Shown here piece by piece: positions 10,528 through 62,364 of a DNA stretch of 64,000 nucleotides. Each line of letters starts with the position of its first letter. Positions within the stretch are counted from its first letter, which is position 1. A program made the position numbers and the translations under genes. The stretch spans positions 13,087 to 77,086 of the forward strand of contig CAYFOO010000001.1 in the NCBI GenBank assembly GCA_964344775.1. Direction: 5' to 3'. The stretch is from an uncultured Candidatus Peribacteria bacterium (lineage in GTDB: Bacteria; Patescibacteriota; Gracilibacteria; UBA4473). The notes under the pieces are model-generated. The model did not search any database. It was not told the DNA's origin and saw only the letters and a program-made list of their open reading frames with translations.

Positions 10528-12759
10528 CCCACGTACAAATTTACCATCACCGGAACAGTTCAGGGCGTCGGATTTCGACCATTTATTCTCCGTGAGGCAA
10601 AAAAAGCAGGGTTGGAAGGATATGTAAAAAATACAGGCATCGGCGTAGAAATCGTGGCCAACGATAAAAATAAAATTGCAAAAATCCTAGAGAATCTACC
10701 CCCTCTGGCCAAGATTGATCAAATTAAGATTCAAGAAATCAAAGATGAAAAATTTAAAGATTTTGTAATTCAAAATTCTTCCCGTACAGACGCCCAATTT
10801 GGGCGTCTCCATAATACAAAAACAAATTTTTCCATCCCCCCCGATATCACCACTTGTGATAAATGCCAAAAAGAATTATTTGATCGGGATGATCGAAGAT
10901 TTCAATATTTTTTCACGAGCTGCACCGACTGCGGTCCCAGATTTTCGATTACAGAGCAATTTCCCTTCGATCGGGAGAATACCACCTTGGAAAAATTCCC
11001 TATGTGCCCAGACTGCGAAAAAGAATACAAAAATCCGGAAGACCGAAGATTCCACGCACAAACTATCGCCTGTGAAAAATGTGGTCCTGTATTGTCCTTG
11101 TACTGTAAAGACACGCCACGGCGTGTCTCCACAGGAAAAAATGCCATAAAAAAAACAATTGATCTTCTCAAATCCGGAGAAATCATCGCCATCAAATCGA
11201 TCGGCGGATTTAGCTTGATCTGCCTGGCCGATGAAAAAACGGTCACAAAATTACGATCCCTCACCCACCGAAAAAACAAGCCTTTTGCCCTGATGGCCAA
11301 AGACATAAATATGATCAAAAATATTGTTCATATTTCTAAGAAAGAACAAGAAATTTTGGAGTCACGAGAGCGGCCAATCGTACTATTGCATCGTAAAGAC
11401 GCCCAAATTGGGCGTCTCAATCACATATCAGAAAACAGCTTCCTCGGATTTTGCCTCCCCTACACTCCCCTGCACCACCTAATTTTTGAGCATCTGGATG
11501 AACCCATCATCTTCACCTCATCCAATCTCCCCGGCATCCCAATTACCACAAAAAAAGAACAACAATTTGTCCCCCATGTCCTGGATTATGACCGGAAGAT
11601 CGCGAACTTTTCGGATGATTCGATCGTAAAAGTAATCGCTGATCATCCCCTCCTCATCCGCCGAAGTCGCGGATTTGTCCCCACAGAAATTCAGGTCCCT
11701 AAAAATTATCAAATATTTGAAGATGATATCCTCGCCGTCGGAGGAGAAATGAAAAACACCTTTTGTCTCAAAAAAGGAAACTCACTACTCCTTTCTCAAC
11801 ACCTAGGAAACACAGCCGGACTCGAGAACTTTGAAAATTTTCGCATCACGCTTGATAAATTTCTGAAATTTACTGGTGCCAAACCAAAGGTAATTCTGTG
11901 CGATAAAAATCCCTCCTTCAATACCCATCAATTTGCTCATGATTTTGCGAAGAAAAATAAGATTCAATGTGTGGAAATTCAACACCACGTGGCACACGTT
12001 TTTTCGACAGCACTCGAACACAATCTGACGAACTTCATCGGAATCGCTGCAGATGGCACCGGCTGGGGAGAGGGTAACAAAGTCTGGGGCGGAGAAGTTT
12101 TTCATAATGATCAGAGAATTGGAAAACTCGAAGATCAAACCCTCATGGGCGGGGACATCGCAAATAAAGAACCAGTCCGGATGCTCATCGGAATTTTATC
12201 CAAATTTTTAGATGAAAAAGAAATCATAAACCTGCTTCCAAATTTTAATGAAAAATTAATTAAAAATTGTATCAAACAAAAGAAAGAAAACTTCAACTGC
12301 ATTGAAAGCTCCAGTTGTGGACGGATCCTTGATTGCATATCTATCCTCCTCGGATTGGCGGATAAAAATGATTACGAAGGGCGATGTGCACAGATGTTAG
12401 AAATAAAAAATGACCTTCCAAAATTTAAAATTAAAAATTTAAAATTAAAAATTAAGGGAAAAGATAATTTAAATATTTTAGAAACTACTCCTCTTTTTCA
12501 ATTTCTCATTGAAAAGCTGGATAAAATCCCAAAAGAAGAGCTCGCACATCTAGCCCAACTCTACCTGGCTGAAGGGCTTCTGAAAATCACCCAAGATCAA
12601 AACCTCCCCATCGTCTGGAGCGGCGGCTGTGCTTACAACTCAATCATAACCAGCTTTTTGATTTCAAAAAATGTACTATTCAACAAAAACATTCCTTCTG
12701 GAGATGGGGGAATTTCTGCCGGACAAATTGCATACTTCCTTTGGAAAAAATTTAACTAA
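10525..12759 (+). CDS. hypF: [NiFe]-hydrogenase maturation carbamoyltransferase HypF
   Basis: Contains an acylphosphatase motif (GTVQGVGFRPF), two CxxC zinc-finger pairs, a YrdC-like block (IAIKSIGGFSL, KNKPFALM) and a Kae1-like C-terminus. The track start (TTG 10612) cuts the acylphosphatase motif. The frame is open from 10501 with no ATG/GTG/TTG, so ATT 10525 is a guess. Confidence 0.85.
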   Translation: MPTYKFTITGTVQGVGFRPFILREAKKAGLEGYVKNTGIGVEIVANDKNKIAKILENLPPLAKIDQIKIQEIKDEKFKDFVIQNSSRTDAQFGRLHNTKTNFSIPPDITTCDKCQKELFDRDDRRFQYFFTSCTDCGPRFSITEQFPFDRENTTLEKFPMCPDCEKEYKNPEDRRFHAQTIACEKCGPVLSLYCKDTPRRVSTGKNAIKKTIDLLKSGEIIAIKSIGGFSLICLADEKTVTKLRSLTHRKNKPFALMAKDINMIKNIVHISKKEQEILESRERPIVLLHRKDAQIGRLNHISENSFLGFCLPYTPLHHLIFEHLDEPIIFTSSNLPGIPITTKKEQQFVPHVLDYDRKIANFSDDSIVKVIADHPLLIRRSRGFVPTEIQVPKNYQIFEDDILAVGGEMKNTFCLKKGNSLLLSQHLGNTAGLENFENFRITLDKFLKFTGAKPKVILCDKNPSFNTHQFAHDFAKKNKIQCVEIQHHVAHVFSTALEHNLTNFIGIAADGTGWGEGNKVWGGEVFHNDQRIGKLEDQTLMGGDIANKEPVRMLIGILSKFLDEKEIINLLPNFNEKLIKNCIKQKKENFNCIESSSCGRILDCISILLGLADKNDYEGRCAQMLEIKNDLPKFKIKNLKLKIKGKDNLNILETTPLFQFLIEKLDKIPKEELAHLAQLYLAEGLLKITQDQNLPIVWSGGCAYNSIITSFLISKNVLFNKNIPSGDGGISAGQIAYFLWKKFN
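10788..10808. repeat. 21-nt palindrome AGACGCCCAATTTGGGCGTCT inside hypF
   Basis: 10+1+10 perfect. Translated as TDAQFGRL. Confidence 0.85.
11109..11128. repeat. 20-nt palindrome AGACACGCCACGGCGTGTCT inside hypF
   Basis: 9-bp arms. Translated as KDTPRRVS. Confidence 0.85.
11397..11417. repeat. 21-nt palindrome AGACGCCCAAATTGGGCGTCT inside hypF
   Basis: Same as 10788..10808 with the central base complemented, i.e. the opposite orientation. Translated as KDAQIGRL. Confidence 0.85.
12424..12458. repeat. heptamer array TTTAAAA TTAAAAA TTTAAAA TTAAAAA TTAAGGG inside hypF
   Basis: Translated as KFKIKNLKLKIKGK. Confidence 0.75.
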
Positions 12760-13332: not shown

Positions 13333-14265
13333 TTATTTTTTACTTTTAGCTTTCGACTTTTTGCCTGTTTCCTCTTTCTTCTTCGTTGTTTTCGCTTTTC
13401 CCTTGTCCTCCGTAGCTTTAGCGGAGGAGGATTCCTTCTTTACTGGTGCTTTCTTTTTTACTGCCTTTTTTTCCTCTTCTGTAGTTTTTTCACTTTTAAC
13501 TTTCGACTTTTGACTTTTGACTTCTTCACTTTCCACTTCTGCCTTTTTCTTGTTACTTGGTGGTGCTTCTGTTCGAAGTAAATTTAATGCTTCAAAAGTA
13601 GCATAAGCGGTATTCAACCTATTTCGTGAACCATGAGATTTAGAAAGCACATTTTTGATCCCTGCTAGGTCCAAAATAGTTCGTACTGATCCTCCTGCGA
13701 TCACCCCCGTACCTTCTGGTGCTGGAATTAAAATTACTTTGGTTGCTTTGAAGTAAGCTTCAATATCGTGAGGAATAGAATCTTCAAAAATTGGAACCGT
13801 CACTAATTTTTTCTTTGCCGCTGCTACAGCTTTTTGGATCCCTACCATCACTTCTGTTGCTTTTCCTACCCCAAGTCCGACTCGTCCTTTTTTGTCTCCA
13901 ATCGCTACCGTCACTTGAAATCGCATTCGTCGTCCTCCCTTCACCACACGAGTCACCCGAGAAATCCGGAGGATACTTTCTTCAAATTCCTTTTTTTCTC
14001 GTTCTCGTCCACCACCTCGACGACCACCACGACCACCTCTCTGACGTTTATCCTTGTGATCCCGGAGGTCTCTTTGATCTGGCTTCCCTTTTTCATCAGC
14101 CTTTTTTTCCTCTTTCTTCTCAGAAGCTTCCCTGTCGGTAGAAGCTGAAGCAGCGGAAGATTCTTCTGCCGATTTTTCAGTGGAAGCATCTTCAGGCTGT
14201 GTGGCCACCTCTGCTGGTGCAGCAGTTCCTTCTTTTTCCGGTGTTGTAGTAGCGTCTTCAGACAT
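13333..14265 (-). CDS. rpsE: 30S ribosomal protein S5 with long N- and C-terminal low-complexity extensions
   Basis: The core (ISRVTRVVKGGRRMRF...GTGVIAGGSVRTILDLAGIKNVLSKSHGS) is flanked by about 95 aa of acidic/RGG sequence and about 85 aa of Lys-rich tail. The tail is encoded by repeat modules. Confidence 0.9.
   Translation of the reverse strand: MSEDATTTPEKEGTAAPAEVATQPEDASTEKSAEESSAASASTDREASEKKEEKKADEKGKPDQRDLRDHKDKRQRGGRGGRRGGGREREKKEFEESILRISRVTRVVKGGRRMRFQVTVAIGDKKGRVGLGVGKATEVMVGIQKAVAAAKKKLVTVPIFEDSIPHDIEAYFKATKVILIPAPEGTGVIAGGSVRTILDLAGIKNVLSKSHGSRNRLNTAYATFEALNLLRTEAPPSNKKKAEVESEEVKSQKSKVKSEKTTEEEKKAVKKKAPVKKESSSAKATEDKGKAKTTKKKEETGKKSKAKSKK
13342..13362. repeat. heptamer array ACTTTTA GCTTTCG ACTTTTT (last codons of rpsE)
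   Basis: Encodes ...KSKAKSKK. Confidence 0.7.
13401..13431. repeat. CCTTGTCCTCCGTAGCTTTAGCGGAGGAGGA module inside the rpsE tail
   Basis: Family CCTGTCCGCCGTAGCCTTGGCGAAGGAGGA (42178..42210, 33288..33320). Translated as SSSAKATEDKG. Confidence 0.7.
13492..13526. repeat. heptamer array ACTTTTA ACTTTCG ACTTTTG ACTTTTG ACTTCTT inside the rpsE tail
   Basis: Encodes VKSQKSKVKS, the identical peptide to the carA insertion. Confidence 0.8.
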
Positions 14266-24551: not shown

Positions 24552-27500
24552 TTAATTCGCCAAAAACGCCCCCCGAAACTTCTGATACTCGGTATTCAGC
24601 TCCGCACAGTGATCCCCCGCCATCTCGATGTAGTCAAAACACTGCCTCGTCGGGACATTATGATTTCTCATAAATTGATCTCTCAAAAGCTCTACCGATC
24701 GCTGACTTTCCTCTCCACACCAAGCCCCTACCTCCTCGATGTAACTTTTTCGAAAATCAGCTCTCACCTCTGGACAATGTGCTTCTACAATCTCTTTTCC
24801 CATGAGAAATTTATCAAAAGAAATCCCCATTCCCATAGCCACGGCCAATTTTTTACGATCTTCATCAGACAAATACCGTTGGTTTTTTCGACCAAAATAC
24901 TCGTACTCCTCCAACTCAGAAAAAAGATCTTCCGCTTTTTGAAAATCAGCATTGGGAGAAACTTCCGACCAATTGTCCCACAACACTTTTAATTTAGTCT
25001 TCAAATCTGCCAAAAATAGTTTTAGATTTCGATCACTGCTACACTGTAATATCTGGCCACATTTATTTTCCAGGTTTTCTACCTCCTGAAGCAAAAGCCA
25101 GATCTTTTTTCGGATAGAGAGTTCTCCTCCACCTCTCCGTTCCTCTATTTCCATCCGATCATCGGCCGTGGCGAGAATGCGAAAAAAATATTTCGAAAGT
25201 TCTGTATCCGCCAGCTTGGCTTCCTGGATGATTTCGTATGCACGGATAAAAATTGTATTGACCGATTTGATCTGATCTTCCTGATACTGCACTTTTTCAG
25301 CCGTAGAAAGTGGAGCCACTTCTTTTTCTGGAATTTCTCGTGCTCGACCAAAAACTTGTACGACATAAAACTCCTTCTTTTTATTTTGGGCCAACCCAAT
25401 TCCCACCCGATTCCACTTCGCACTGAGGAGATTTTGTCGATGGGATGCAGAATTTTCTAGTCCGTTCAGAGCGAGCTCCAGAGTGGTCCCGTAGCCCAGA
25501 TTCTCCCCAAATTCGCCAAACATTTCTGCCATTTTGATCCGATCTTTGAAGCTCAACCCCTCCGGAGTGGTATGGGAAATAAATCCTTCATTAGCCATCC
25601 GCTGAGCATAGTGCTGAGCAAATTTGTCCAACTTTGAATCCTTCGCCAGGGGCGATTTCCGATATTTTTTTCGGAGCTGATTGATCCAGTTTCGGATTCC
25701 CGCCGTGGACTCTGAACGAATAAAAGTTTGTTCCCATTTTGCCACCGGTAACACAATATTTTTGTGAAAATACATCCCTCGGTTGAAAAGAATTTCGCCC
25801 TGGTCAGAAACAATCTCAAGTACATACGTGCCATACTTGTGTGGCTTGAGCGAGAAGAAAAATTTATCGCCGTTTTTTTTGATTGGGATCTGTTCTACCG
25901 TGCCTTCGGTAGAAATCAAAAATACATGATCCGGCAGGTTTATCCCACCCTCCAGGACTTTCCCATTCAGATGAACCATGTCCAAATCCTTGAGAAATCG
26001 AGGAAACTGGTGCACAGAAATCGTATCTTCTTCTTTGTCCGGAAACCCCGGAGTGAGAATGAAATTTTTGTACGATACCTGCTGCCAATTGGTGATTTGG
26101 GATTCTAGATTTCCATCCGATGAATCTGCTTGAAAAACATCAATCGCCAGTTTGCGATCCGGACGAAACTGATCAAAAAATTTATACGGAACAGAAATAT
26201 GATTGAGCCCGTATTCAAAAAGTAAAGCGGATTTATGATTTTGAGAAAAAACAATTTTTGTCAGTCGATCTTCTCCTGCTGCCCAGGAGAAAACTACTCG
26301 CGATTCCTCAGGAATCACGTTCACATCCAGATGGGAAACATAATGTGTTTCAGCCGAACGAAATTTTCTATCTCGAGTGAGTGCAGAAACTTTTATTTTC
26401 CCGACACGAGATCGTCGATCATCGTCAAAAACGATGCCCAGATGAAAATTTCCCGGTTCAAAAAAGATAATCGGCACAGAAAAATTTGCTCCAGAAACCG
26501 CACCTTTAAACTGCTCTTGTGCCTTTGTTTCCAAATTTTGAAGAAAAACGATTACTTTTTTTGCCCCAGGATTTTTTACTGTTCCCTCCACTTCAATTAC
26601 CCGTCCCACGATCACTTCACTCGGAACTCCCCGCCTCAGGGTCAGATTGGGAAAAAAATTCTCGGAGATGTAAGCGATAGTTCCTCTGGTAGGCCGGTTG
26701 GGAATAAGCTCTTTTTTTTTACGAGGAATGGGTTTTTTAGCTCGTTTTTTTACGAGTGCTTTTTTGATATCTTCTGTTGGTTCACCAGAACGAGTTCGTT
26801 TGCTGAGAAATTTATCCGCCAAAACATCCGGTACACTTTTTTCTTTGGCTTCTTCTGTCAGACTTGGACGGATCTGTTCTGGGATAGTTGGCTGTTCGTC
26901 CAGATTATCAGAATACACTTCGAAAACGACATCGATCACCCCTCGAGAAGAAGGGGCTAATCTTTCAAAGGCTTTTCGCGAAAGGTCCAAAATTCGATCC
27001 GAATGATACGGTCCACGATCATTTACTCGTACAATCACATAATCTTTGTCGTCATTACTCCACGCAGGATTCCAATTCCACACCTTCAGCTTGGTCCCAA
27101 AAGGAAGAATCCGGTGGGCCGCGGTCATGTCCATCGGATCATAAATCTCTCCATTGGCTGTAGGTCGCCCAGCAAATCCCTGATCGTAGAAACTCGCCGA
27201 TCCCATCCCCGAGTAGGTGTATTTGGACTCGAATCGATTGGTTGATAAAATATGAGCTCGATAAATGTACTCCGCGATGTCTCCTCGAGAGAGGGATTCG
27301 TACGGAGAGAGCTCCGGTTCATCCAGGATTCGAAATTCTTCTGCCGTATCGAAAAATGGAACAAACCAATCCTCAGATTCCGAATCTTCTGTGAAAGGTA
27401 CATCAAAACTCATCACCAGCATCTTGAGAAACTCCGCTCGAGAAACTTGTTTGCCGGGATGGAAGTTGCCATCCGTGAAGCCTTTTACAATTTTATGAGC

Positions 27501-27800
27501 AGCGGCCGTGTGCACATAGTCGGCGAACCAGTCGTTTTTTCGAATGTCGGGGAAAGATACATCAGATCTGGGGTTCACCGGAATATCTGCCGCCAGTAGC
27601 AACATTTTTAGTGCTTCTGCTCGATTTACTTTTTGCCGCGGACGGAAGTACATCTCTCCTTCTTCCTCATATCCGCTCACCACTTCTTTTTCGCTCAAGA
27701 AATCAATCGGATGAAAGTGTGGATGTGTGGTATCCACATCGACAAAACTTGCGAATGAAAAAGCTGGAAAAAAGAGGAATGTAAAAAATAGTCTTTTCAT
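24552..27800 (-). CDS. large secreted multidomain protein: SLH repeats + RlpA-like DPBB + CAP/SCP (YkwD-like) + Cys-containing C-terminal region
   Basis: Signal peptide and SLH repeats (GFTDGNFHPGKQVSRAEFLKML). DPBB block: SFYDQGFAGRPTANGEIYD...VIVRVNDRGPY...ILDLSRKAFERLA. CAP block: HTTPEGLSF...GENLGYG...SHRQNLLSAKWNRVGIG. Confidence 0.7.
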   Translation of the reverse strand: MKRLFFTFLFFPAFSFASFVDVDTTHPHFHPIDFLSEKEVVSGYEEEGEMYFRPRQKVNRAEALKMLLLAADIPVNPRSDVSFPDIRKNDWFADYVHTAAAHKIVKGFTDGNFHPGKQVSRAEFLKMLVMSFDVPFTEDSESEDWFVPFFDTAEEFRILDEPELSPYESLSRGDIAEYIYRAHILSTNRFESKYTYSGMGSASFYDQGFAGRPTANGEIYDPMDMTAAHRILPFGTKLKVWNWNPAWSNDDKDYVIVRVNDRGPYHSDRILDLSRKAFERLAPSSRGVIDVVFEVYSDNLDEQPTIPEQIRPSLTEEAKEKSVPDVLADKFLSKRTRSGEPTEDIKKALVKKRAKKPIPRKKKELIPNRPTRGTIAYISENFFPNLTLRRGVPSEVIVGRVIEVEGTVKNPGAKKVIVFLQNLETKAQEQFKGAVSGANFSVPIIFFEPGNFHLGIVFDDDRRSRVGKIKVSALTRDRKFRSAETHYVSHLDVNVIPEESRVVFSWAAGEDRLTKIVFSQNHKSALLFEYGLNHISVPYKFFDQFRPDRKLAIDVFQADSSDGNLESQITNWQQVSYKNFILTPGFPDKEEDTISVHQFPRFLKDLDMVHLNGKVLEGGINLPDHVFLISTEGTVEQIPIKKNGDKFFFSLKPHKYGTYVLEIVSDQGEILFNRGMYFHKNIVLPVAKWEQTFIRSESTAGIRNWINQLRKKYRKSPLAKDSKLDKFAQHYAQRMANEGFISHTTPEGLSFKDRIKMAEMFGEFGENLGYGTTLELALNGLENSASHRQNLLSAKWNRVGIGLAQNKKKEFYVVQVFGRAREIPEKEVAPLSTAEKVQYQEDQIKSVNTIFIRAYEIIQEAKLADTELSKYFFRILATADDRMEIEERRGGGELSIRKKIWLLLQEVENLENKCGQILQCSSDRNLKLFLADLKTKLKVLWDNWSEVSPNADFQKAEDLFSELEEYEYFGRKNQRYLSDEDRKKLAVAMGMGISFDKFLMGKEIVEAHCPEVRADFRKSYIEEVGAWCGEESQRSVELLRDQFMRNHNVPTRQCFDYIEMAGDHCAELNTEYQKFRGAFLAN

Positions 27801-27964: not shown

Positions 27965-28861
27965 ATGGAACTCGAAAAAATCGTCACTGATTTTCTAAAA
28001 AAAGAACACCTTACCGATAAAAAACTGCTCTGCATGGTTTCCGGTGGTGTGGACTCCGTCGTGCTGTTAAATATTTTGAATAAAATTTTTGATCAAAAAT
28101 CACTTGCCGTCTTTCATCTAGATCATTCCTCACGAAACAATTCTGACAAAGACTTTCAATTTGTACAAAATTTGTGCTCAAAATTTGGTACTAAATTTTA
28201 TGGGGAAAAATTGGATAAAATCCCTCAAAAAGACAAAGAAAATTTTTGGAGAACAGAACGAAAAAGATTGGCTAAAAAGGCCAAAAAAGACTTCGGAGCA
28301 GAAAGAATCCTCACGGCTCACCATGCCACCGATCTCGTAGAAACGATGCTTTTCAGGCTAACAAAAGGGTGCGGCATCGATGGCCTTTCCCCTTTTGAAA
28401 CCAGCACAAAACCTCTGTGGCAAGTCCCAAAATCAGAAATTGAAAAATATGCACGAGAAAACAAACTCAAATGGATCGAGGATCCCTCAAATGAAAATAC
28501 GGACTTCCAACGAAACCTCATCCGGAAAGAAGTACTCCCCCATCTGCGAAAAATCACCCCCAATCTCGAACAGGTTTTTGTCCGAGAAGCAGAAATTTTT
28601 GGAGAAATGGCGGATTTTTTGGATAAATCTGTTGAAACGGTAGGGACAAGTCGCGACTTGTCCCTACCAGATTTTTTAAATCTCCCAAAAATCCTCCAAA
28701 AAGAGTGGCTCCAAAAAATCGCCAAATCTACTCCTAGTGCTTCAGAGATCGAAGACTGTCTCCGTTGGCTCCACGGCAATCCTCCAGGCAAAAGCAAAAA
28801 AGAAATTGGAGGCACAAAACTTCAGATTGTGAATAATAAAATTCAAATTCTCCCCTGTTAA
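27965..28861 (+). CDS. tilS: tRNA(Ile)-lysidine synthase
   Basis: PP-loop CMVSGGVDS and TAHHATDLVET. Carries a 30-nt perfect palindrome in frame (28639..28668). Confidence 0.85.
   Translation: MELEKIVTDFLKKEHLTDKKLLCMVSGGVDSVVLLNILNKIFDQKSLAVFHLDHSSRNNSDKDFQFVQNLCSKFGTKFYGEKLDKIPQKDKENFWRTERKRLAKKAKKDFGAERILTAHHATDLVETMLFRLTKGCGIDGLSPFETSTKPLWQVPKSEIEKYARENKLKWIEDPSNENTDFQRNLIRKEVLPHLRKITPNLEQVFVREAEIFGEMADFLDKSVETVGTSRDLSLPDFLNLPKILQKEWLQKIAKSTPSASEIEDCLRWLHGNPPGKSKKEIGGTKLQIVNNKIQILPC
28639..28668. repeat. 30-nt perfect palindrome GGTAGGGACAAGTCGCGACTTGTCCCTACC inside tilS
   Basis: Translated as VGTSRDLSLP. A sibling lies at 58206..58233. Confidence 0.9.
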
Positions 28862-29026
28862 GGGGAGACTAAGAGGGGTTTTTCCGAAGGAAAATAATCT
28901 TTTGACACTTCAGACAACTTTATTAACTTACCCACACAGCTTTTTCGGCAGCGTTACTGCTCGACCGATGAACGCTACTGATCTTTATTGTTTTCGTTGT
29001 AACCCAAAAAGGGAGGGCTTAGCCCA

Positions 29027-30202
29027 ATGAACGCGATTGTTCCCGAAAAACCAAAGAAAGGTCCGGCATGTCCGGATTTTTCCTCCGGCCCCTGTGCGAA
29101 ACGTCCCGGATGGACTGTGAAGGTCCTCGAGAACGCACTTACCGGTCGATCCCACCGCTCCAAACCGGGCAAGGCCAAGCTGGCCGAAGCCATCGACCTG
29201 ACCCGGGAAGTCCTCGGCATTCCCGACGATTACCGTATCGGAATCGTCCCAGCATCGGATACCGGTGCGGTCGAAATGGCCCTGTGGTCTCTGCTCGGTG
29301 CCCGCGGCATCGACATGCTGGCCTGGGAGAGTTTCGGCAAGGGCTGGGTGACCGACGTGGCCAAACAGCTCAAGCTCGGCGTCAACATTCTAGACGCCGA
29401 TTACGGTAAGTTACCCGACCTCAAAATGGTGAACTTCGCCAACGACGTGGTGTTCACCTGGAACGGTACTACCTCGGGTGTCCGAGTTCCCAACGGCAAC
29501 TGGATCCCCGCCGACCGCCAGGGTCTCACCATCTGCGACGCCACTTCAGCCGCATTTGCTATGGACCTTCCTTGGAACCTACTAGACGTCACTACCTGGT
29601 CCTGGCAGAAGTGTCTGGGCGGCGAAGGAGCTCACGGCATGATTGTCTTGAGTCCTCGTGCGGTTAAGAGGCTCGAAACATTTACGCCTTCTAACCGTCC
29701 TCTGCCCAAGATCTTCCGTCTGACCAAGGGCGGTAATCTGATCGATGGCATCTTCCGGGGCGAAACTATCAACACGCCTTCCATGATCGCCGTGGAGGAC
29801 GCTCTGGATGGCCTGAAATGGGCACAGTCCATTGGCCTGCAAGGGCTTATCAACCGCTCCGAAGACAACCTTACCGTTGTCGACGAGTGGGTGGAAGTCA
29901 GCGATTGGGCGGCTTTCCTGGCGGAAGTTCCTGAAACCATCTCGAATACCTCGGTCTGTCTGCAGATCAAGGACGAGTGGTTCCTGGGGCTGAACGGCGA
30001 CCAACAGGCCGTCTTCGCCAAACGGATGGTGGCTCTGCTCGACGCAGAAGGTGTCGCCTTCGATATCGGTGCCTACCGGGACGCCCCGGCCGGACTCCGT
30101 ATCTGGTGCGGTCCCACCGTCGAAATCGACGATGTGATCGTGCTGATGCCCTGGCTCGATTGGGCCTTCGCCACCGCCAAGGCGGAATTCGAAACCGCCT
30201 GA
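29027..30202 (+). CDS. serC: phosphoserine aminotransferase (long, proteobacterial-type SerC)
   Basis: [51 protein letters not shown] and [15 protein letters not shown]-rich codon usage unlike all neighbours. AGGGAGGG lies before the ATG, and a stem-loop terminator follows the gene. Confidence 0.85.
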
Positions 30203-30269
30203 CGTCCCAACGAAATCAAGAAAATTCCGTGCTCCCGGAGACAATCTTCCTCCGGCAGCCAACTCTCAA

Positions 30270-30296
30270 GCGGTCCCTCCGGGACCGTTTTCCTTT
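30270..30296 (+). terminator. intrinsic terminator of serC
   Basis: CGGTCCC-TCC-GGGACCG followed by TTTTCCTTT. Like the gene, it is GC-rich. Confidence 0.7.
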
Positions 30297-30316
30297 ATTC
30301 CAAAAAACCCTTGTAT

Positions 30317-30383
30317 GTCATCCTGGCCTGCCCAGGATCCTGACAGTTGTGCACAAGCGACCAGATTCCGGGCAAGCCGGAAT
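30317..30383. repeat. pair of GC hairpins (ATCCTGG-CCTGC-CCAGGAT; ATTCCGG-GCAAG-CCGGAAT) of the GTCAYCC...GAATGAC type
   Basis: Stems were counted directly. They lie at the right edge of the serC island. Confidence 0.7.
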
Positions 30384-30400
30384 GACAAATTTTTCTACTA

Positions 30401-30439: not shown

Positions 30440-32626
30440 TTACCGATCCGGCGGAATCCCAAAATGTGAAAACAAAAACTTCGCCACTCGACGAAAAGTA
30501 ATCGCCGCGGTCTCAGATCCCCACTGAGAATATCGCGGATGGTCGTATTTCACCAGCACGACAAATTTGGGCTCTTTGATCGGACCAAAACCAGCAAAAC
30601 TGGTGATTGTCGTCCCCTCACCAACCAGTGCCTTCCCTTTTTTATACGTCTGAGAGGTTCCTGTTTTTCCCATTACCGAATACCCCCACACCCGTGCTCC
30701 ACGAGCCACGCCGTTGTCCACGGAGTTCAAGAGCATGGATTTGATTGTCTGATACGTCTTATCAGAAATCACCCGACGCACTCGCTCAGGCTTGAATGTT
30801 TCGGCTTCGCCTCCTGGATAACGAATCTCTTCGACAATCATGGGTTTCATCAGGTATCCACCATTGGCCAGCGAGGTAAAAGCCATCGCCATCTGAAGTG
30901 GCGTAGCCGTAATCCCCTGCCCAAACCCGTAGGTGATCAACTCTGATTCAGCCCATTCACGCCAGGGTTTAATTTTTCCATCTTCTTCTCCGTCGAGCTC
31001 AATATCCGTGTACTGTGCAAAACCAAAGTTTTTGAAATAGTCATATAGCACCTGCCTTCCAATCTTTCGGGTAATGAATGCGATTCCAGTATTCAAAGAT
31101 CGGTTGATCACCTCGATCATAGTCGTCAGTCCAGCGTAAATTTGATCCGCGTTTCGGATTTTGAATTCATCTACCTCCACCGGTCCTGCGTCGTCAAATG
31201 TTGTCTGGGGCATCACCTCATCAGAATTCAAAGCGGCCGACATCGTAAAGGCCTTCATCACGGATCCTGGTTCGTAGGTATCGGAAACAATTTTGTTTCG
31301 AAATACAGCGGGTCCCCAGGAGTTGAAATATCGGTAGTATCGACCATTTTCTATGATGGTGGGGATTCGCTGATTGAAAAGCTCATCCTCCCGGTCAGCC
31401 TCTGCCTGCTCTGGCGATATTTCGTAGCGGAGGAAAGCTTTTCCAAATTCATTGGGATCAAAGGACGGGGCATGGGTCATGGCGAGCACTTTCCCGGTCT
31501 CTGGTTCAATCACGACGATCTGACCGAAGTCCGCACTGTAATTCATCAGATCCTCTTCGAGGATTTTTTCTACAGCATCTTGGATCACCCGATCGATGGT
31601 GAGGACGATATCGGCTCCATCCTGTGCATGAGCAATCCCCAGGCTTTTGCTCAGGATTCGTTGCCCTCGCGTATTGGTCGCTCCGAAAATATATCCCTCT
31701 TTTCCCTTGAGCAGATGATCAAAGTATCCCTCAATCCCATACTGCCCTCCTCCAGACGAATCCACAAACCCGAGAAGCTGGGCGGCCAGTGTTTTTTCTG
31801 GATAGTATCGCCAATATTCATCCGTCAGCTGGACCCCTCGAAGCATTTCTTTGTAGTTTGGATCTCGCTTCATTTCCATAATTTTTTCTGAAACTTCTGG
31901 CACAATCTTATGCGTAATTTCAAGGTATCGCCGTGGTTTCCGATCGATCCATTTGGAAATTTTTCTTTCTTCGATATTGAGGAGTGGAGCTAATTTCTCA
32001 GCTGTTTCTTCGAGAGCAATGATGCGAGTGGGATCTGCCAAAACAGCATTCTCTTCAACCCAGATACCCGGCAAATGCATCTCAGTTATTTTTTCGGCTC
32101 TTTCCTGGGAAATATCGGTCAGCAGTAAAACTCTTTTTCGCTCAATGGAAGAAATCTTTTTTCGCAGCTCCGCCGCATAAGCCATGATCGCCGCTCTCTC
32201 GGTAGTGGTCCAAGTGGATGGTTCGGTTTTTATGTCACATCCCTCAATCTTCTCACAATGAGCATTGATCAGAATCGGTGCCAAAATCTCCGCTACCACC
32301 CCCGGATCTGATTTTTCTTGCTGATTGAGTGGTAATTTGTGATTGTACTTCGGATAACTCAAAATCAAAGGATCCACAAAAAGCATCTTCAGGGTGTTGT
32401 TGGTGGCCACTGGAGTCACTTCCTCCGTCAGTCGATTTTTTCGGACCAGGATCTTTCCACGACGGGCCGGCAAAACGGATTTCTTCTCGTGCTGAGCCTT
32501 CGCTTCTGCATAAAACTCCTGATGCCGAATCACCTGCAGCTCAAAAAGCCGCAATCCAAATATCACAAAAAGGGCCAAAAAACACCATTTGAGGATTCGG
32601 ATGCGGGATTCAAAAGTTACGAGCAT
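30440..32626 (-). CDS. penicillin-binding protein 2 / FtsI-type peptidoglycan D,D-transpeptidase
   Basis: Start moved to MLVTFESRIRILKWCF (TM anchor). Transpeptidase motifs: GSVMKAF (SxxK), RSLNTG (SxN) and MGKTGTSQ (KTG). Confidence 0.85.
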   Translation of the reverse strand: MLVTFESRIRILKWCFLALFVIFGLRLFELQVIRHQEFYAEAKAQHEKKSVLPARRGKILVRKNRLTEEVTPVATNNTLKMLFVDPLILSYPKYNHKLPLNQQEKSDPGVVAEILAPILINAHCEKIEGCDIKTEPSTWTTTERAAIMAYAAELRKKISSIERKRVLLLTDISQERAEKITEMHLPGIWVEENAVLADPTRIIALEETAEKLAPLLNIEERKISKWIDRKPRRYLEITHKIVPEVSEKIMEMKRDPNYKEMLRGVQLTDEYWRYYPEKTLAAQLLGFVDSSGGGQYGIEGYFDHLLKGKEGYIFGATNTRGQRILSKSLGIAHAQDGADIVLTIDRVIQDAVEKILEEDLMNYSADFGQIVVIEPETGKVLAMTHAPSFDPNEFGKAFLRYEISPEQAEADREDELFNQRIPTIIENGRYYRYFNSWGPAVFRNKIVSDTYEPGSVMKAFTMSAALNSDEVMPQTTFDDAGPVEVDEFKIRNADQIYAGLTTMIEVINRSLNTGIAFITRKIGRQVLYDYFKNFGFAQYTDIELDGEEDGKIKPWREWAESELITYGFGQGITATPLQMAMAFTSLANGGYLMKPMIVEEIRYPGGEAETFKPERVRRVISDKTYQTIKSMLLNSVDNGVARGARVWGYSVMGKTGTSQTYKKGKALVGEGTTITSFAGFGPIKEPKFVVLVKYDHPRYSQWGSETAAITFRRVAKFLFSHFGIPPDR

Positions 32627-37428: not shown

Positions 37429-37569
37429 CCACAATAAAACCACTCCCTCCGCCACCGATTTTTGTGTTTATAAAACACAAGGGGTATTTTTCCGAAAAAA
37501 GATTTGCACTCTTCATTTTTTCTTCTACAGTCGAAGTTAGTTCTTTTTTATTTCTTAATTTTATCAAAG

Positions 37570-38013
37570 ATGAACTCGTTGAACAAAGCTCAGATCATCG
37601 GAAACCTCACACGTGACCCTGATCTCAGGAAAACTCAGAACGACCAATCCGTATGTACGGTTGGGGTAGCCACTAACCGAAATTGGACGGACTCCAATGG
37701 CTCCAAGCATGAAGAAGCCGAATTCCACAATGTGGTTTGTTGGGGAAGATTGGCAGAAATCGTAGCCGAACGATTGAAAAAAGGCTCAAAAGTATTTTTT
37801 GAAGGACGCCTCAGAACTCGAAACTGGGAAGACGATGCCGGCATCAAACACTACCGAACAGAAATCGTGGCTGATGACATGATTATTCTTTCTCCCAGGA
37901 GTGGAGGAAGTGCTACTGGAGATGACAGTACAACAGAAAGCACGGAAGATAAACCAGTCAAAACAGAAGAACCACCCTCTGACGACATGCCGACGGACGA
38001 GGTGCCATTCTAA
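37570..38013 (+). CDS. ssb: single-stranded DNA-binding protein
   Basis: Start moved to MNSLNKAQIIGNLTRDP. OB-fold blocks and an acidic tail ending DEVPF. Confidence 0.9.
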   Translation: MNSLNKAQIIGNLTRDPDLRKTQNDQSVCTVGVATNRNWTDSNGSKHEEAEFHNVVCWGRLAEIVAERLKKGSKVFFEGRLRTRNWEDDAGIKHYRTEIVADDMIILSPRSGGSATGDDSTTESTEDKPVKTEEPPSDDMPTDEVPF

Positions 38014-38087
38014 TTTTGGTTTTCACCAGAAAAAACAAAGACTGCAGAGAGGGAGGCTCTGTGGTTTTTTGATGGTAAATTCTTGAG

Positions 38088-38215
38088 AAATTAGAAAATT
38101 TTTAATTTTGTAATTTTTAATTTTATAAATAAATCCTAATTTTTAATTTTTAAAAATAGCAAAAAACAGTCTCTAAGAATTTGACTTTAAAAATTTGAGC
38201 ATTAAAAATTCCTTA
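38088..38215. repeat. AT-only composite heptamer repeat, copy B
   Basis: Contains the exact 38-mer AAAATTTTTAATTTTGTAATTTTTAATTTTATAAATAA shared with copy A. Boundaries are approximate. Confidence 0.75.
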
Positions 38216-38263
38216 CAACTTACCACCTCCCACCTACAACTTTTTAAAAAACTAACAACTAAT
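38215..38263. repeat. heptamer array ACAACTT ACCACCT CCCACCT ACAACTT TTTAAAA AACTAAC AACTAAT
   Basis: ACAACYT family, immediately upstream of ndk. Confidence 0.75.
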
Positions 38264-38267
38264 TTCC

Positions 38268-38729
38268 ATGGAACAATCCCTCGTACTCGTAAAACCAGAT
38301 GCCGTCCAACGTGGTCTCATCGGAGAAGCACTTCACCGATTTGAACGGAAAGGGCTAAAAATTGTAGGACTCAAAATGATTCGCCTCAAAAAAGCCATTC
38401 TGCTCGAACACTACGCTCATGTAAAGGATGAACCTTTTTTTGCAGAACTATCACACTTCATGAGTTCCAGTCCTCTAGTAGCCATCTGCGTAGAAGGCAT
38501 TAACGCTGTTGAAGTAGTGAGAAAAATCTGCGGTGTAAAAAATACAGAATTCGGATCCATCCGCGGAGACTTTTCCGTTTCGAGCCAACGAAATCTGGTC
38601 CACAGCTCTGATTCGGTCGAAACCGCCAAACGTGAAGTGCCACGATTTTTTAGTACAGAAGAACTCTTCATATATGACAAAGATGAGTGGAAACAGGTGT
38701 ACAGTGAGGGGGAAAGAGAAAAAAATTAG
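38268..38729 (+). CDS. ndk: nucleoside-diphosphate kinase
   Basis: SLVLVKPDAVQRGLIGE and the active-site His context NLVHSSDS. Confidence 0.9.
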   Translation: MEQSLVLVKPDAVQRGLIGEALHRFERKGLKIVGLKMIRLKKAILLEHYAHVKDEPFFAELSHFMSSSPLVAICVEGINAVEVVRKICGVKNTEFGSIRGDFSVSSQRNLVHSSDSVETAKREVPRFFSTEELFIYDKDEWKQVYSEGEREKN

Positions 38730-38785
38730 TTTTTAGTTTTCTTGATTTATCTCTGTATTAGAAATTAAAAAATCGCTTATTTTAC

Positions 38786-38814
38786 TTGTTGTTAAAGCTT
38801 TTTTGTGATACAAT
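38786..38814 (+). promoter_or_regulatory. candidate promoter TTGTTG-17-TACAAT
   Basis: Upstream of the VirD4-like gene. It would leave a 5' UTR of about 120 nt. Confidence 0.35.
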
Positions 38815-38936
38815 GAATAGATTTATGTCTAAAGTTTTGTGGACAAACAATCTGCAATCATTGATCATACTTGTCGGCTGAAGTTTGTAACTATAGTTAA
38901 AACTAACGAAGGCTGAAATCTACAATTAAAAAATAA

Positions 38937-41762
38937 ATGGAAACAGTGAAAAATCTTCGGGACGCATTTGTAGGAGTCTACGGCACTATGCCGTGGTGGA
39001 TGTGGATTATTGTGATTGTTGGAGGTATCTTGATATTTCTTTTGGGAAGGTTCCTGCTCAGATACTGGCACCGTAGACATGAACGAAATCAACTTGTCCA
39101 CCTACGTGTCACACTCCCCCGAAGTGATTCTAAACTGGATCAAGAAAAAAGAACCGAAAAAGACTTCCGGGAACAAATTGGAAAGGCCGAGCAGTTTTTT
39201 CGAGCACTCCATGAGACACGAGAACTCAACCTCTACAATATCTGGATCAAACGAACTATCTGGAAAAAGCCCCAGCTTTCCTTTGAATTACAGTTTGAAA
39301 AACGAGAATTAAGCTTCGTGATTGTTTGTGACCCGTACTATCAAAAGATTATTGATAAACAGATTACTTCTTTTTATCCGGATGCAGAGATTGAACTACT
39401 AAAACCAGAGGAACAAATAAATCTAAAAACAGAAGGCAGCTACCTAAATGGTTATTATATGTACACGGAGAACCCGTATTGGTTTCCGATCCAGACGTAC
39501 AAAAAAATTGAAGACGATGCCATTAACGATCTGGCCAACTCTTTTTCCAAGCTCACAAAAGAAGAAAAAGCCGTGGTACAGTTTGTAATCCATCCGAAAT
39601 CAAAAAAATGGCAAAAAAAAGCCGAGAAAGTGGCGACAGCCCTCTTCAAAGAAAAAGACACTCCAAGTGGGATTTTTGCCATTCCAGTACTGGGATTTGT
39701 ACTTCGACTCATCTGGTTGCCGTTTAAAATACTAGTTCGAGGATATGATCCACAAACAGACACACTCTCCGGAGAAGAAAAAGATTCTGGCGGCATCGTT
39801 CGAATGCTTGCGAGCAAGGAAGAAACATACAAAGCCATGGGAGAAAAAGCCGCTCAGTCCGGATACGATGCTACGATCCGGGTACTCGCTTCATCTCCAG
39901 ACAAAGCTCGAGTTCAAGAAATTTTGAACGGAATTTTTGTGTCGTTTAACGTATTTAAATCAAAAGGATCGAATCTGTTTGAGAACCGAAGGATTATACC
40001 TCTCAACCTGATTAACGCCCCACTTATTCATCATAATTTTCGTCTTCGACTTTTCTCTTTTTTGGAGAAAAAAAATCTGCTTTGTTCGGAAGAATTAGCC
40101 ACCATGTTTCACTTCCCGGATTCACGGTACAACCGAATCCCTACGATTAAATGGCTCACGTACAAAGTGCTCCCTCCACCAATCGATCTGCCGAAAGAAG
40201 GAGTTGTACTCGGGAATTCGGTTTATCGAGGTATTACCAAACCTGTTCGATTTCTCCGAGACGATCGAACCAGACATCACTACTGTATCGGAAAATCTGG
40301 GTCTGGTAAATCCGTCCTCCTCTGGAATATGGCCGTTCAGGATATTAAAAATGGTGATGGCGTAGGACTGATCGACCCGCATGGAGATCTGGTAGATGAC
40401 GTACTCACCTGCGTACCAAAAGAACGAGCCAAAGATGTCATCGTTTTTGATCCAGGAGATATCCAACGCCCGATGGGCCTCAATATTCTCGAAGCCAAAA
40501 CAGAAGAAGAAAAAGACCGTGCCTCGCTCGATGCGATGGAGATCTTCATTAAACTTTTTGGAAATGAAATCTTCGGACCGCGTATCCAGCACTATTTCCG
40601 AAACGGATGTCTGACACTCATGGACGACGAAGAAGAAGGAGCAAGTTTGATCGATATCCCACGACTTTTTATCGATGATGATTATCAGCAGTATAAAGTA
40701 TCCAAAGTAAAAAATGTAATGGTACGAGCTTTTTGGGAAAACGAAATGGCACAGACCGGAGATCGAGAAAAACAAGAGATGATCCCCTACTTCACTTCAA
40801 AATTTGGACCGTTCGTCACCAACACAACAATGCGTAACATCATTGGACAAACAAAGTCATCTTTCAATATCCGAGAAGCCATGGATAATCGAAAGGTTGT
40901 TCTGATGAACCTATCCAAAGGTAAGATTGGGGATATCAATGCTCAGCTCCTCGGACTGATCCTGGTGGCAAGAATAAACATGGCTGCTATGGGACGATAT
41001 GATATTCCAAAGGAAGAACGTAAAGATTTTTTCTTCTACGTGGATGAGTTCCAAAATTTTGCCACGGATACCTTTGCCGCGATTCTTTCCGAGGCTCGTA
41101 AATACCGACTCTGTCTGATTATGGCTCACCAGTACATCGCCCAGCTCACCGAAGGAGAAGGTGGTGGTGGAGACACAAAAATTAGGGATGCCGTTTTTGG
41201 TAACGTAGGGACAATGATGAGTTTTAAGGTCGGTGCTGATGATGCGGAATATCTCGAAAAAGAATACTCTCCAACACTTTCTGCTCAGGATATTCTCAGT
41301 ATCGCAAACTACAAGGCCTACGTGAAACTGAATATCAAAAACACCACTTCTAGGCCGTTTTCGATGGAGACACTCTACGACCCAAGCATGAAAAATGAAA
41401 AAGTAGCCGAGGTGATCAAAAAATACTCTCGAATGAAATTTGGACGAAAGAAAGAATTCGTGGATGCAGAGATCGAAGCCCGAATGGGAGTAGGTGGTGG
41501 AAATAACGGTGGAAAAAACGTCATGAAACAGCTCGAAGGTGCCCCACCTATTGAAGCACAAATTCCTGCCAAAGAACCCCCTCCTACCGAAACTGAAGTT
41601 CCTCTCACTCTTGCAAACACCGTTTCACCACAAGAAGAACAAATCGTCGCTGAGGAAACTACGGAAAACGAATCAGAAACACCAAATACAGAACTAACCG
41701 AGACGGCAACAGAAACTCCTATCGCAAAAACAGAGGAAAAGAAAACAGAATCTGTGGGGTAA
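38937..41762 (+). CDS. membrane-anchored P-loop ATPase, VirD4/TraD/TraG (type IV coupling protein)-like
   Basis: N-terminal TM helix, Walker A CIGKSGSGKSVLL, Walker B FFFYVDEFQNF, then AHQYIAQL. The T/E/P-rich C-terminal tail has low complexity. Confidence 0.65.
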   Translation: METVKNLRDAFVGVYGTMPWWMWIIVIVGGILIFLLGRFLLRYWHRRHERNQLVHLRVTLPRSDSKLDQEKRTEKDFREQIGKAEQFFRALHETRELNLYNIWIKRTIWKKPQLSFELQFEKRELSFVIVCDPYYQKIIDKQITSFYPDAEIELLKPEEQINLKTEGSYLNGYYMYTENPYWFPIQTYKKIEDDAINDLANSFSKLTKEEKAVVQFVIHPKSKKWQKKAEKVATALFKEKDTPSGIFAIPVLGFVLRLIWLPFKILVRGYDPQTDTLSGEEKDSGGIVRMLASKEETYKAMGEKAAQSGYDATIRVLASSPDKARVQEILNGIFVSFNVFKSKGSNLFENRRIIPLNLINAPLIHHNFRLRLFSFLEKKNLLCSEELATMFHFPDSRYNRIPTIKWLTYKVLPPPIDLPKEGVVLGNSVYRGITKPVRFLRDDRTRHHYCIGKSGSGKSVLLWNMAVQDIKNGDGVGLIDPHGDLVDDVLTCVPKERAKDVIVFDPGDIQRPMGLNILEAKTEEEKDRASLDAMEIFIKLFGNEIFGPRIQHYFRNGCLTLMDDEEEGASLIDIPRLFIDDDYQQYKVSKVKNVMVRAFWENEMAQTGDREKQEMIPYFTSKFGPFVTNTTMRNIIGQTKSSFNIREAMDNRKVVLMNLSKGKIGDINAQLLGLILVARINMAAMGRYDIPKEERKDFFFYVDEFQNFATDTFAAILSEARKYRLCLIMAHQYIAQLTEGEGGGGDTKIRDAVFGNVGTMMSFKVGADDAEYLEKEYSPTLSAQDILSIANYKAYVKLNIKNTTSRPFSMETLYDPSMKNEKVAEVIKKYSRMKFGRKKEFVDAEIEARMGVGGGNNGGKNVMKQLEGAPPIEAQIPAKEPPPTETEVPLTLANTVSPQEEQIVAEETTENESETPNTELTETATETPIAKTEEKKTESVG

Positions 41763-61719: not shown

Positions 61720-62364
61720 ATGGGAAAAAAAGTTAGTCCGATATCTCTCCGAATAGGAATCACCCGAACTTGGGATTCTCTCTGGTACGATCGAAAGAAT
61801 TTTGCTCAAAAGTTTCTCCAGGACATCGCTATTCGGAAGTTTCTCAAAGAAAAAGGCAAGGAAGCGGGTATCGCAAAAATAGAAATTCACAGACATCCAG
61901 GAAAAACAGCGATCATCGTCCACTGCGGAAAACCGGGAATTATCATTGGTCGAAGCGGTGAAAATGTAGAATTACTTACCAAAGAATTGCGATCAAAGTT
62001 CGGAGAAGCGTTTGAACTTTCTATTCAAGAAATCCGAAAACCGGATGGGAATGCAGAGCTTGTAGCGGCTTCTGTGGCAGATCAAATCTCTCGAAGGTTC
62101 CCATACCGTCGGGTAGCAAAAATGGCAATAGATCGAGCAAAGGAATCTGGAGCAAAAGGAATTAAAATCACCGTGAGTGGGCGTCTCAATGGAGTGGATA
62201 TTGCCCGAAGAGAAAGTTATGCCTTTGGAACCGTACCGCTTCATACTTTACGGGCAAACATTGATTATGCCACCGCTCGAGCAGAAACTACTTATGGAAC
62301 TATTGGGGTGAAGGTATGGATTTATCAGGGATTGGTTTTTAAAAACGAAAAATTGAACGGTTAA
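61720..62364 (+). CDS. rpsC: 30S ribosomal protein S3
   Basis: MGKKVSPISLRIGI..., a KH domain, and GRLNGVDIARRE. No L16 follows. Confidence 0.95.
   Translation: MGKKVSPISLRIGITRTWDSLWYDRKNFAQKFLQDIAIRKFLKEKGKEAGIAKIEIHRHPGKTAIIVHCGKPGIIIGRSGENVELLTKELRSKFGEAFELSIQEIRKPDGNAELVAASVADQISRRFPYRRVAKMAIDRAKESGAKGIKITVSGRLNGVDIARRESYAFGTVPLHTLRANIDYATARAETTYGTIGVKVWIYQGLVFKNEKLNG

Follow-up and report, generated by a model that had tools for sequence, protein, structure and literature searches.

A single GC-rich serC gene of alphaproteobacterial type in a Candidate Phyla Radiation genome, very probably acquired by horizontal transfer

Bacteria of the Candidate Phyla Radiation (CPR, Patescibacteria) have very small genomes and presumably rely on other cells, and lateral acquisition of metabolic genes by them has already been reported. 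We analyzed a stretch of 64,000 nucleotides from a CPR contig (CAYFOO010000001.1, positions 13,087 to 77,086 of the forward strand; hereafter the window), in which a phosphoserine aminotransferase gene, serC, lies on a GC-rich block between tilS and a gene for a PBP2-type transpeptidase. Like the transfers into CPR bacteria described before, this is a single gene of foreign affinity in a small CPR genome with no adjoining mobile-element genes. It differs from them in that its composition is untouched, 9.6 standard deviations (sd) above expectation, and in that it carries a donor-style Shine-Dalgarno (SD) sequence in a genome that otherwise lacks them, so that the event is visible from the raw sequence alone. 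We consider it very probable that a serC of the serC_2 type was transferred horizontally, as a real single-gene event, from a donor of about 56% GC into this CPR genome. It is a very clean and fresh example of a known phenomenon, with no new mechanism or kind of element.

Three further described systems resemble the locus in part. The alphaproteobacterial serC-serA operon, preceded by the serC leader RNA (RF00517), shares with it the enzyme subtype (TIGR01365 / NF002841), a similar protein length, 69–73% identity, and a purine-rich SD of the AAGGGAGG kind before the ATG. In the window, however, there is no leader (E ≤ 10) and no serA; hairpins and a convergent PBP2 gene follow serC instead, and the surrounding genome is a CPR genome of 41% GC. 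As the leader and serA were both looked for and neither was found, the window serC is not an instance of the alphaproteobacterial leader-serC-serA unit. Classical genomic islands likewise have atypical GC and codon usage and occupy variable slots; they are also missing at the corresponding site of relatives, as serC appears to be here. The insertion here is a single 1.2-kb gene with no integrase, transposase, tRNA gene, or significant direct repeat, and without such mobility features it is not a classical genomic island. Finally, the SerC of Mycobacterium tuberculosis (PDB 2fyf / 3vom) belongs to the same fold family, with an aligned QK motif; it is of the serC_3 subtype, whereas the window protein is serC_2, and the relationship is distant. 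The gene itself reads as follows.

29027-30202, plus strand: serC, phosphoserine aminotransferase of the serC_2 (alphaproteobacterial-type) class, 391 aa, intact; called from profile matches and homologues; GC 0.589

An initial annotation of this DNA had assigned the gene to the long SerC type with alphaproteobacterial affinity. This is upheld by matches to NF002841 (651.8 bits against a cut-off of 477, with residues 7–388 on profile positions 5–387 of 389) and to TIGR01365, the serC_2 model (619.8 bits against a cut-off of 448.2), as well as by the homologue searches described below, and both peptide strings that it quoted are found in the serC translation. The common serC_1 model scores merely 30.6 bits. 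The M. tuberculosis enzyme is the nearest solved structure (E = 1e-15, 60.6 bits for the whole sequence), and the lysine of the SWQK motif in the window protein falls on the QK of 2fyf in the alignment; in enzymes of this fold, this lysine forms the Schiff base with pyridoxal phosphate. Conservation was measured in an alignment with 90 homologues, in which the window SerC retains 103 of the 105 invariant columns and 178 of the 182 columns conserved at 90% or more. The two exceptions among the invariant columns are a K-to-L replacement ten residues before the lysine and a one-residue deletion in a loop. Judged by its sequence, the protein is a genuine serC_2 family member, full-length and intact. 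Its predicted reaction is the second step of the phosphorylated serine pathway, in which 3-phosphohydroxypyruvate and glutamate would be converted to phosphoserine and 2-oxoglutarate.

Composition was measured in sliding windows over the whole 64 kb, where serC is the highest GC point. Its GC of 0.589 compares with 0.408 ± 0.030 in the other windows of gene length (1176 nt; maximum 0.494), giving z = 6.0. By codon position, its GC is 0.610 (GC1), 0.457 (GC2), and 0.702 (GC3), the last against 0.377 ± 0.074 in the 46 other likely genes of the window (maximum 0.496). The codon adaptation index (CAI) referenced to these 46 host genes is 0.569 for serC and 0.734 ± 0.027 for the host genes (z = −6.1). 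GC and codon adaptation, the two measures by which the initial annotation had proposed to check the gene, therefore both set it apart. A two-change-point likelihood fit of a single GC-rich segment places the block at 29060–30379, with support intervals of 28995–29090 for its start and 30209–30389 for its end. The downstream spacer keeps a GC of 0.52–0.54 until about 30390 and then falls to 0.245. The switch in composition that had been described by eye for about 28935–30300 is thus recovered by both the sliding windows and the fit, with the left edge drawn slightly early. The accompanying description of an AT-rich genome is right in that the surroundings are lower in GC, but only moderately so, as the window overall has 41% GC. 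All four long overlapping open reading frames (ORFs) reported on the block are present at the coordinates given for them, but they do not occur only there: spurious ORFs of 165–249 aa also overlap tilS, a gene for a 1082-aa protein, and PBP2.

As a control for intrinsic GC content, we took 79 full-length serC homologues and regressed the GC of each serC on that of its own flanks. The two are tightly coupled (slope 0.89, r = 0.986, residual sd 0.014), and in low-GC genomes (such as Richelia, Calothrix, and metagenome-assembled genomes (MAGs) of Rickettsiales) the GC3 of serC goes down to 0.27–0.37. The window serC lies 9.6 sd above this family line; its GC exceeds that of its flanks by 0.181, against 0.030 ± 0.017 elsewhere (maximum 0.073). 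Total GC, GC1, and GC3 separately imply a donor GC of 0.56–0.57. Since GC3 is not below the expectation from GC1 and GC2 (z = +1.0), no amelioration is detectable, and for this reason the transfer appears recent on the scale of synonymous substitution. A GC3 so far from the host equilibrium is incompatible with the saturated synonymous divergence at 73% protein identity, so the known homologues would have split from the true donor long before the transfer, and the donor lineage is presumably unsampled in public data. Of the proposal of a very recent horizontal acquisition from a high-GC donor, the horizontal origin, the higher-GC donor, and the fresh composition hold, while "very recent" has to be qualified, the nearest homologue being 73% identical in both protein and DNA.

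The same control bears on whether serC could be an old resident of the lineage, inherited vertically or transferred anciently, with a high GC owed to selection or to a property of the family. A related CPR class, the Peribacteria, would speak for this, as Ca. Peribacter has 58.5% GC and is reportedly able to make serine (PMC4736985); the long terminal branch of the window serC and the merely 73% identity of its nearest homologue would also suit a long residence. However, GC in this family follows the genome across the 79 homologues, with GC3 as low as about 0.3, and the window serC departs from the line by the 9.6 sd given above. No CPR genome appears in the best 80 loci or among the named protein matches, the six related loci that we compared have no serC beside PBP2, and host genes are not started from an SD such as that of serC. 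We therefore hold an old resident to be highly improbable. The Peribacteria were also considered as an alternative source of serC and set aside, with no CPR genome among the closest homologues.

Homologues were taken from the best 120 of 8000 protein matches and from the best 80 loci in a set with one genome for each GTDB species. The 120 proteins are 69–73% identical to the window SerC, and all organisms named among them are Alphaproteobacteria, including Azospirillum, Parvibaculum, Kordiimonas, Roseibium, Rhodobacterales, and Rhodospirillales. The 80 loci are from Alphaproteobacteria, together with a few Nostocales and Verrucomicrobia and one Acidobacterium, all of these at 64–68%. CPR genomes are absent from both these loci and the named matches among the 120. 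At the DNA level, similarity to the donor-type loci reaches 73% at most and is restricted to the ORF (29061–30203). The closest relatives of PBP2 and of ribosomal protein S3 (61720–62364), in contrast, are 81% and 79% identical or less, and all lineage-specific names among their matches are 'Candidatus Gracilibacteria bacterium', a CPR label. Gene and flanks are incongruent in their sequence affinities: SerC matches Alphaproteobacteria, and PBP2 and S3 match Gracilibacteria-labelled CPR.

The donor class is probably alphaproteobacterial, as far as sequence relationships can tell. In a neighbor-joining tree, the window serC sits on a terminal branch of 0.147 (median 0.063), and naming the donor by phylogeny was dropped, with sister support of 32% or less. 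We also weighed a real transfer from elsewhere, either from a non-alphaproteobacterial donor (Verrucomicrobia, Cyanobacteria, Acidobacteria, or an unknown group) or through a mobile-element intermediate. Such an origin would accord with the merely 32% support for the best sister in the tree, with the missing alphaproteobacterial serC leader, with the chromid and megaplasmid copies of Azospirillum and Sinorhizobium/Rhizobium (70% identity or less), and with the presence of alphaproteobacterial-type SerC at 64–68% identity in Nostocales, Coraliomargarita/Opitutaceae, and a Bryobacteraceae MAG. Yet the named proteins in the best 120 and the top of the genome list are all from Alphaproteobacteria, several alphaproteobacterial loci (L008 among them) are also without the leader, and the phage collection holds no serC of this type, its single match being 24% identical. 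We judge a donor of this other kind unlikely. In the Nostocales, Coraliomargarita/Opitutaceae, and Bryobacteraceae MAG, the GC of serC is fully adapted to each genome and the loci lack the core motif of the serC leader, which suggests older transfers of the same gene into those phyla.

The genes on either side of the block are the following.

27965-28861, plus strand: tilS, tRNA lysidine synthetase, 298 aa, host gene on the left flank; TIGR02432 (145 bits) and PF01171; GC 0.398, no SD
30440-32626, minus strand: PBP2-type transpeptidase, 728 aa as called in public assemblies, host gene on the right flank, convergent with serC; PF00905 and PF03717

A sharp compositional switch in a metagenome assembly could also arise from a chimera, in which the assembler built a piece of a co-occurring alphaproteobacterial genome into a CPR contig, and the initial annotation had offered a chimeric join as its second explanation. 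Five public contigs contain the exact window SerC, and we compared three of them with the window: a MEGAHIT contig from ERR2281802 (77 kb) and Logan contigs from ERR2281803 (16.3 kb) and ERR2281802 (13.5 kb). All three are 100% identical to the window over 13.5–21 kb across both junctions, so that two assemblers and two runs give base-for-base the same joins. Each join lies in a spacer, and what they enclose is precisely one intact gene equipped with an SD and a terminator. No repeat of more than 16 nt is common to the junction spacers and the remainder of the window, and a chimera would require two precise false joins 1.4 kb apart.

Synteny points the same way. Six related loci were fetched by PBP2 homology, four of them from assemblies other than that of the window, and serC is not beside PBP2 in any. 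In two relatives (L005 and L095; PBP2 71–72% identical), tilS and PBP2 are convergent neighbors with other cargo between them, from which it follows that both sides of the block belong to one genome and that the spacer is a variable slot. With the junctions reproduced and tilS and PBP2 neighbors in relatives, a chimera is very unlikely, and we give it next to no credence. The expectation that relatives would have tilS next to PBP2 without serC is only loosely borne out: in L005 and L095 the intervening slot is filled with other genes, and elsewhere the neighborhood is a different one. The slot of L005 (10310–13203) holds four small unknown genes and that of L095 (9285–10334) one 349-aa orphan. 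These cargoes gave no significant family assignment and resemble neither each other nor any part of the window. The L095 orphan has a very strong SD (ΔG −13.6) and a GC of 0.50 in a host of 0.435. There are hints here that the tilS/PBP2 slot repeatedly receives foreign genes.

On the 5′ side, the spacer and the ribosome-binding site are as follows.

28862-29026, plus strand: upstream spacer, with host-like GC of 0.384 over 28862-28934 and intermediate GC of 0.478 over 28935-29026
29010-29017, plus strand: Shine-Dalgarno AGGGAGGG, 9 nt before the serC ATG; anti-SD duplex ΔG −11.8 kcal/mol

That serC brings its own strong SD had been noted from the sequence, and the contrast with the host is pronounced: AGGGAGGG makes serC the sole gene with a strong SD among the 47 in the window. 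Against its −11.8 kcal/mol, none of the 46 host genes reaches −6, and their mean of −0.27 is weaker than that of random 20-mers from the window (−2.16); their leaders are rich in A, at a fraction of 0.44 over the final 15 nt. SD-like sequences, AAGGGAGGG / AAGGAAGGGAG, stand upstream of serC in loci L033 and L096. The alphaproteobacterial-type L096 has an SD at 7 of 13 genes, and the related CPR loci L004, L005, L094, and L095 have one at 2–3 genes each. Because the serC SD is unique in an SD-less host, it probably came with the gene, which would mean that the import reached at least ~17 nt into the 5′ leader. The 3′ end of the host 16S rRNA, which lies outside the window, would decide whether the imported SD is of use or is passed over.

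The serC leader RNA RF00517 is present in 9 of 10 homologous loci tested, ending 1–5 nt before the ATG, and a core-motif search found its motif in at least 48 of 80 loci. In the window, there is none in 28800–29100 even at E ≤ 10, and none over the full length at the gathering threshold. Some alphaproteobacterial loci, including the best match L008, are also without it, so its lack in the window does not fix the breakpoint. The stop codon of tilS lies within a hairpin that has no T-tract on the plus strand, and expression of serC would rely on read-through from tilS or on an unrecognized promoter. The start of serC, CCAATGAACGCGATTGTTC (29024–29042), is partly repeated 59 nt upstream at 28965–28983 (CCGATGAACGCTACTGATC; 15 of 19 positions, shuffle p ~0.04). 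This upstream copy opens an 11-codon upstream ORF, MNATDLYCFRC, and may be a recombination scar or chance.

Three structures occupy the 3′ side.

30231-30259, plus strand: first 3′ hairpin, CCGGAG...CTCCGG, GC-rich, from sequence reading and fold
30268-30296, plus strand: intrinsic-terminator-like stem-loop of 10 pairs (6 G-C) with a loop of 3, then TCCTTTATT, from the fold; presumed serC terminator
30316-30387, no strand assigned: imperfect palindrome of 72 nt with 36-nt arms that are 72% complementary, single copy in the window

The 246-nt 3′ spacer as a whole folds far better than its shuffles (z = −6.5). The stem-loop and T-tract at 30268–30296 agree with the terminator that had been proposed at 30270–30296, and the palindrome at 30316–30387 with the hairpin modules proposed at 30317–30383. 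A repeated element was ruled out for the latter, which occurs once in the window. Since the palindrome precedes TTTTTT on the minus strand, it may serve as a terminator for PBP2; it may be of host origin or have been imported. In loci L096 and L097, serA directly follows serC. In the window, serC has no serA downstream: the hairpins come next, and after them the stop codon of the PBP2 gene, which is convergent.

Homology does not locate the exact ends of the imported DNA, which are inferred: both spacers are unmatched in the loci of relatives, in the 80 donor-type loci, and in the rest of the window, the longest matches (12–16 nt) being at chance level. The flanks carry an inverted repeat at 28984–28999 / 30208–30223 (13 of 16 complementary; 78% over 23 nt) that is marginal, with an uncorrected shuffle p of ~0.013. 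Flanking repeats were rejected as integration scars, as all candidates are too weak (a shuffle fraction of 0.65 for the best direct repeat, p ~0.013 for the inverted repeat, and p ~0.04 for the partial repeat of the serC start). A phage vector was dismissed because the phage collection gave no copy of this type, only the 24% match, and a plasmid vector because the chromid and megaplasmid copies of Azospirillum and Sinorhizobium/Rhizobium are 70% identical or less.

The most probable course of events would start with a bacterium of roughly 56% GC carrying an alphaproteobacterial-type serC_2 enzyme. A fragment of ~1.2–1.4 kb with one complete gene, serC, would have entered a CPR host labelled 'Candidatus Gracilibacteria', with the standard code, 41% GC, and genes without SDs. 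Entry may have been by uptake of free DNA and illegitimate recombination, which is the most economical route. By landing in the spacer between the convergent tilS and PBP2 genes, the fragment would have interrupted no operon, making the insertion harmless. It would have comprised the ORF, the final ~17 nt or more of the 5′ leader with the SD, and probably the 3′ hairpin terminator, but neither the donor-type leader RNA nor serA. In its new host, serC could be expressed and supply serine or phosphoserine alongside threonine synthase, LysA, LeuA/LeuC, and AroD.

Several observations weigh against a recent single-gene transfer or restrict what can be said about it. No donor can be named, with the nearest SerC homologue 73% identical and no stable sister in the neighbor-joining bootstrap (best 32%, an Azospirillum MAG), and the long terminal branch could mean acceleration after transfer instead of an unsampled donor. 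The island borders have no integrase, transposase, or tRNA gene, the neighbors being housekeeping genes, and direct repeats in the flanks are at chance level (shuffle fraction 0.65). In the absence of any such gene or of a repeat beyond chance, the entry mechanism is conjecture. In the relative with the closest PBP2 (81% identical), the neighborhood is instead DnaK-PBP2-aldolase, so there is no true empty site to compare; a TilS scan of Joint Genome Institute (JGI) metagenome contigs for such a site gave distant matches only (24–44% identity). As for function, we found no convincing sigma-70-like promoter in the upstream spacer of serC, and neither serA nor serB anywhere on the 77-kb contig, which extends ~13 kb beyond the 64-kb window. 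A transfer as recent as this one appears to be would leave the sequence intact in any case, and intactness is no proof that the gene is under selection in its new host.

Wherever the gain of a biosynthetic gene can be clearly dated, it reveals how CPR genomes get patched and from which source. The present case is unusually clean, with a single gene whose donor-type composition and ribosome-binding site are intact and whose donor regulation (leader and serA) has been stripped away. It provides a concrete test case for the expression of a foreign, SD-led, GC-rich gene in an SD-less host of lower GC, and a possible clue to the ecological partner of the CPR bacterium. A bolder proposal would join two claims, namely that serC is the fingerprint of a physical partner, an unsampled alphaproteobacterium of ~56% GC, and that the tilS/PBP2 spacer is a recurrent landing site for foreign SD-bearing genes. 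We regard the two together as distinctly unlikely. If both were true, host-derived slot genes could help to match uncultured CPR lineages to their hosts and to probe how SD-independent translation handles imported SD-led mRNAs.

The remaining content of the window characterizes the host. Long ORFs are intact under the standard code and TGA is the stop codon of 6 of the 47 genes, so the host lineage is not UGA-recoded; we would place it with the Peregrinibacteria-like, standard-code part of the Gracilibacteria-labelled group. The window also encodes threonine synthase, LysA, LeuA, a LeuC-like aconitase-family protein, AroD, CarA, GatCA, and pyruvate kinase, by which the host is biosynthetically richer than many CPR bacteria. 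A full-length HypF-type carbamoyltransferase of hydrogenase maturation (10612–12759, plus strand) adjoins a 4Fe-4S dicluster protein; hydrogenase subunits are not encoded in the window. Ribosomal protein S5 (13333–14265, minus strand) has 310 aa, its S5 domains covering residues 94–232 only between long N- and C-terminal extensions. At 37504–41762 (plus strand), genes for SSB and NDK precede that of a 941-aa VirD4/TraG-type coupling protein (DUF8128, T4SS-DNA_transf, and TrwB/TraG), which has a host-like GC of 0.43, lies 9 kb from the island, and could belong to an apparatus for DNA transfer or DNA uptake. A secreted protein of 1082 aa (24552–27800, minus strand) combines SLH repeats with an RlpA-type DPBB lytic transglycosylase domain and a CAP/YkwD domain. 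Finally, a 775-aa protein (51787–54114, plus strand) carries the core of a class I lysyl-tRNA synthetase (PF01921), an anticodon-binding domain, and a C-terminal B3/4 domain (PF03483) of the kind known from the PheRS beta subunit, an unusual fusion.

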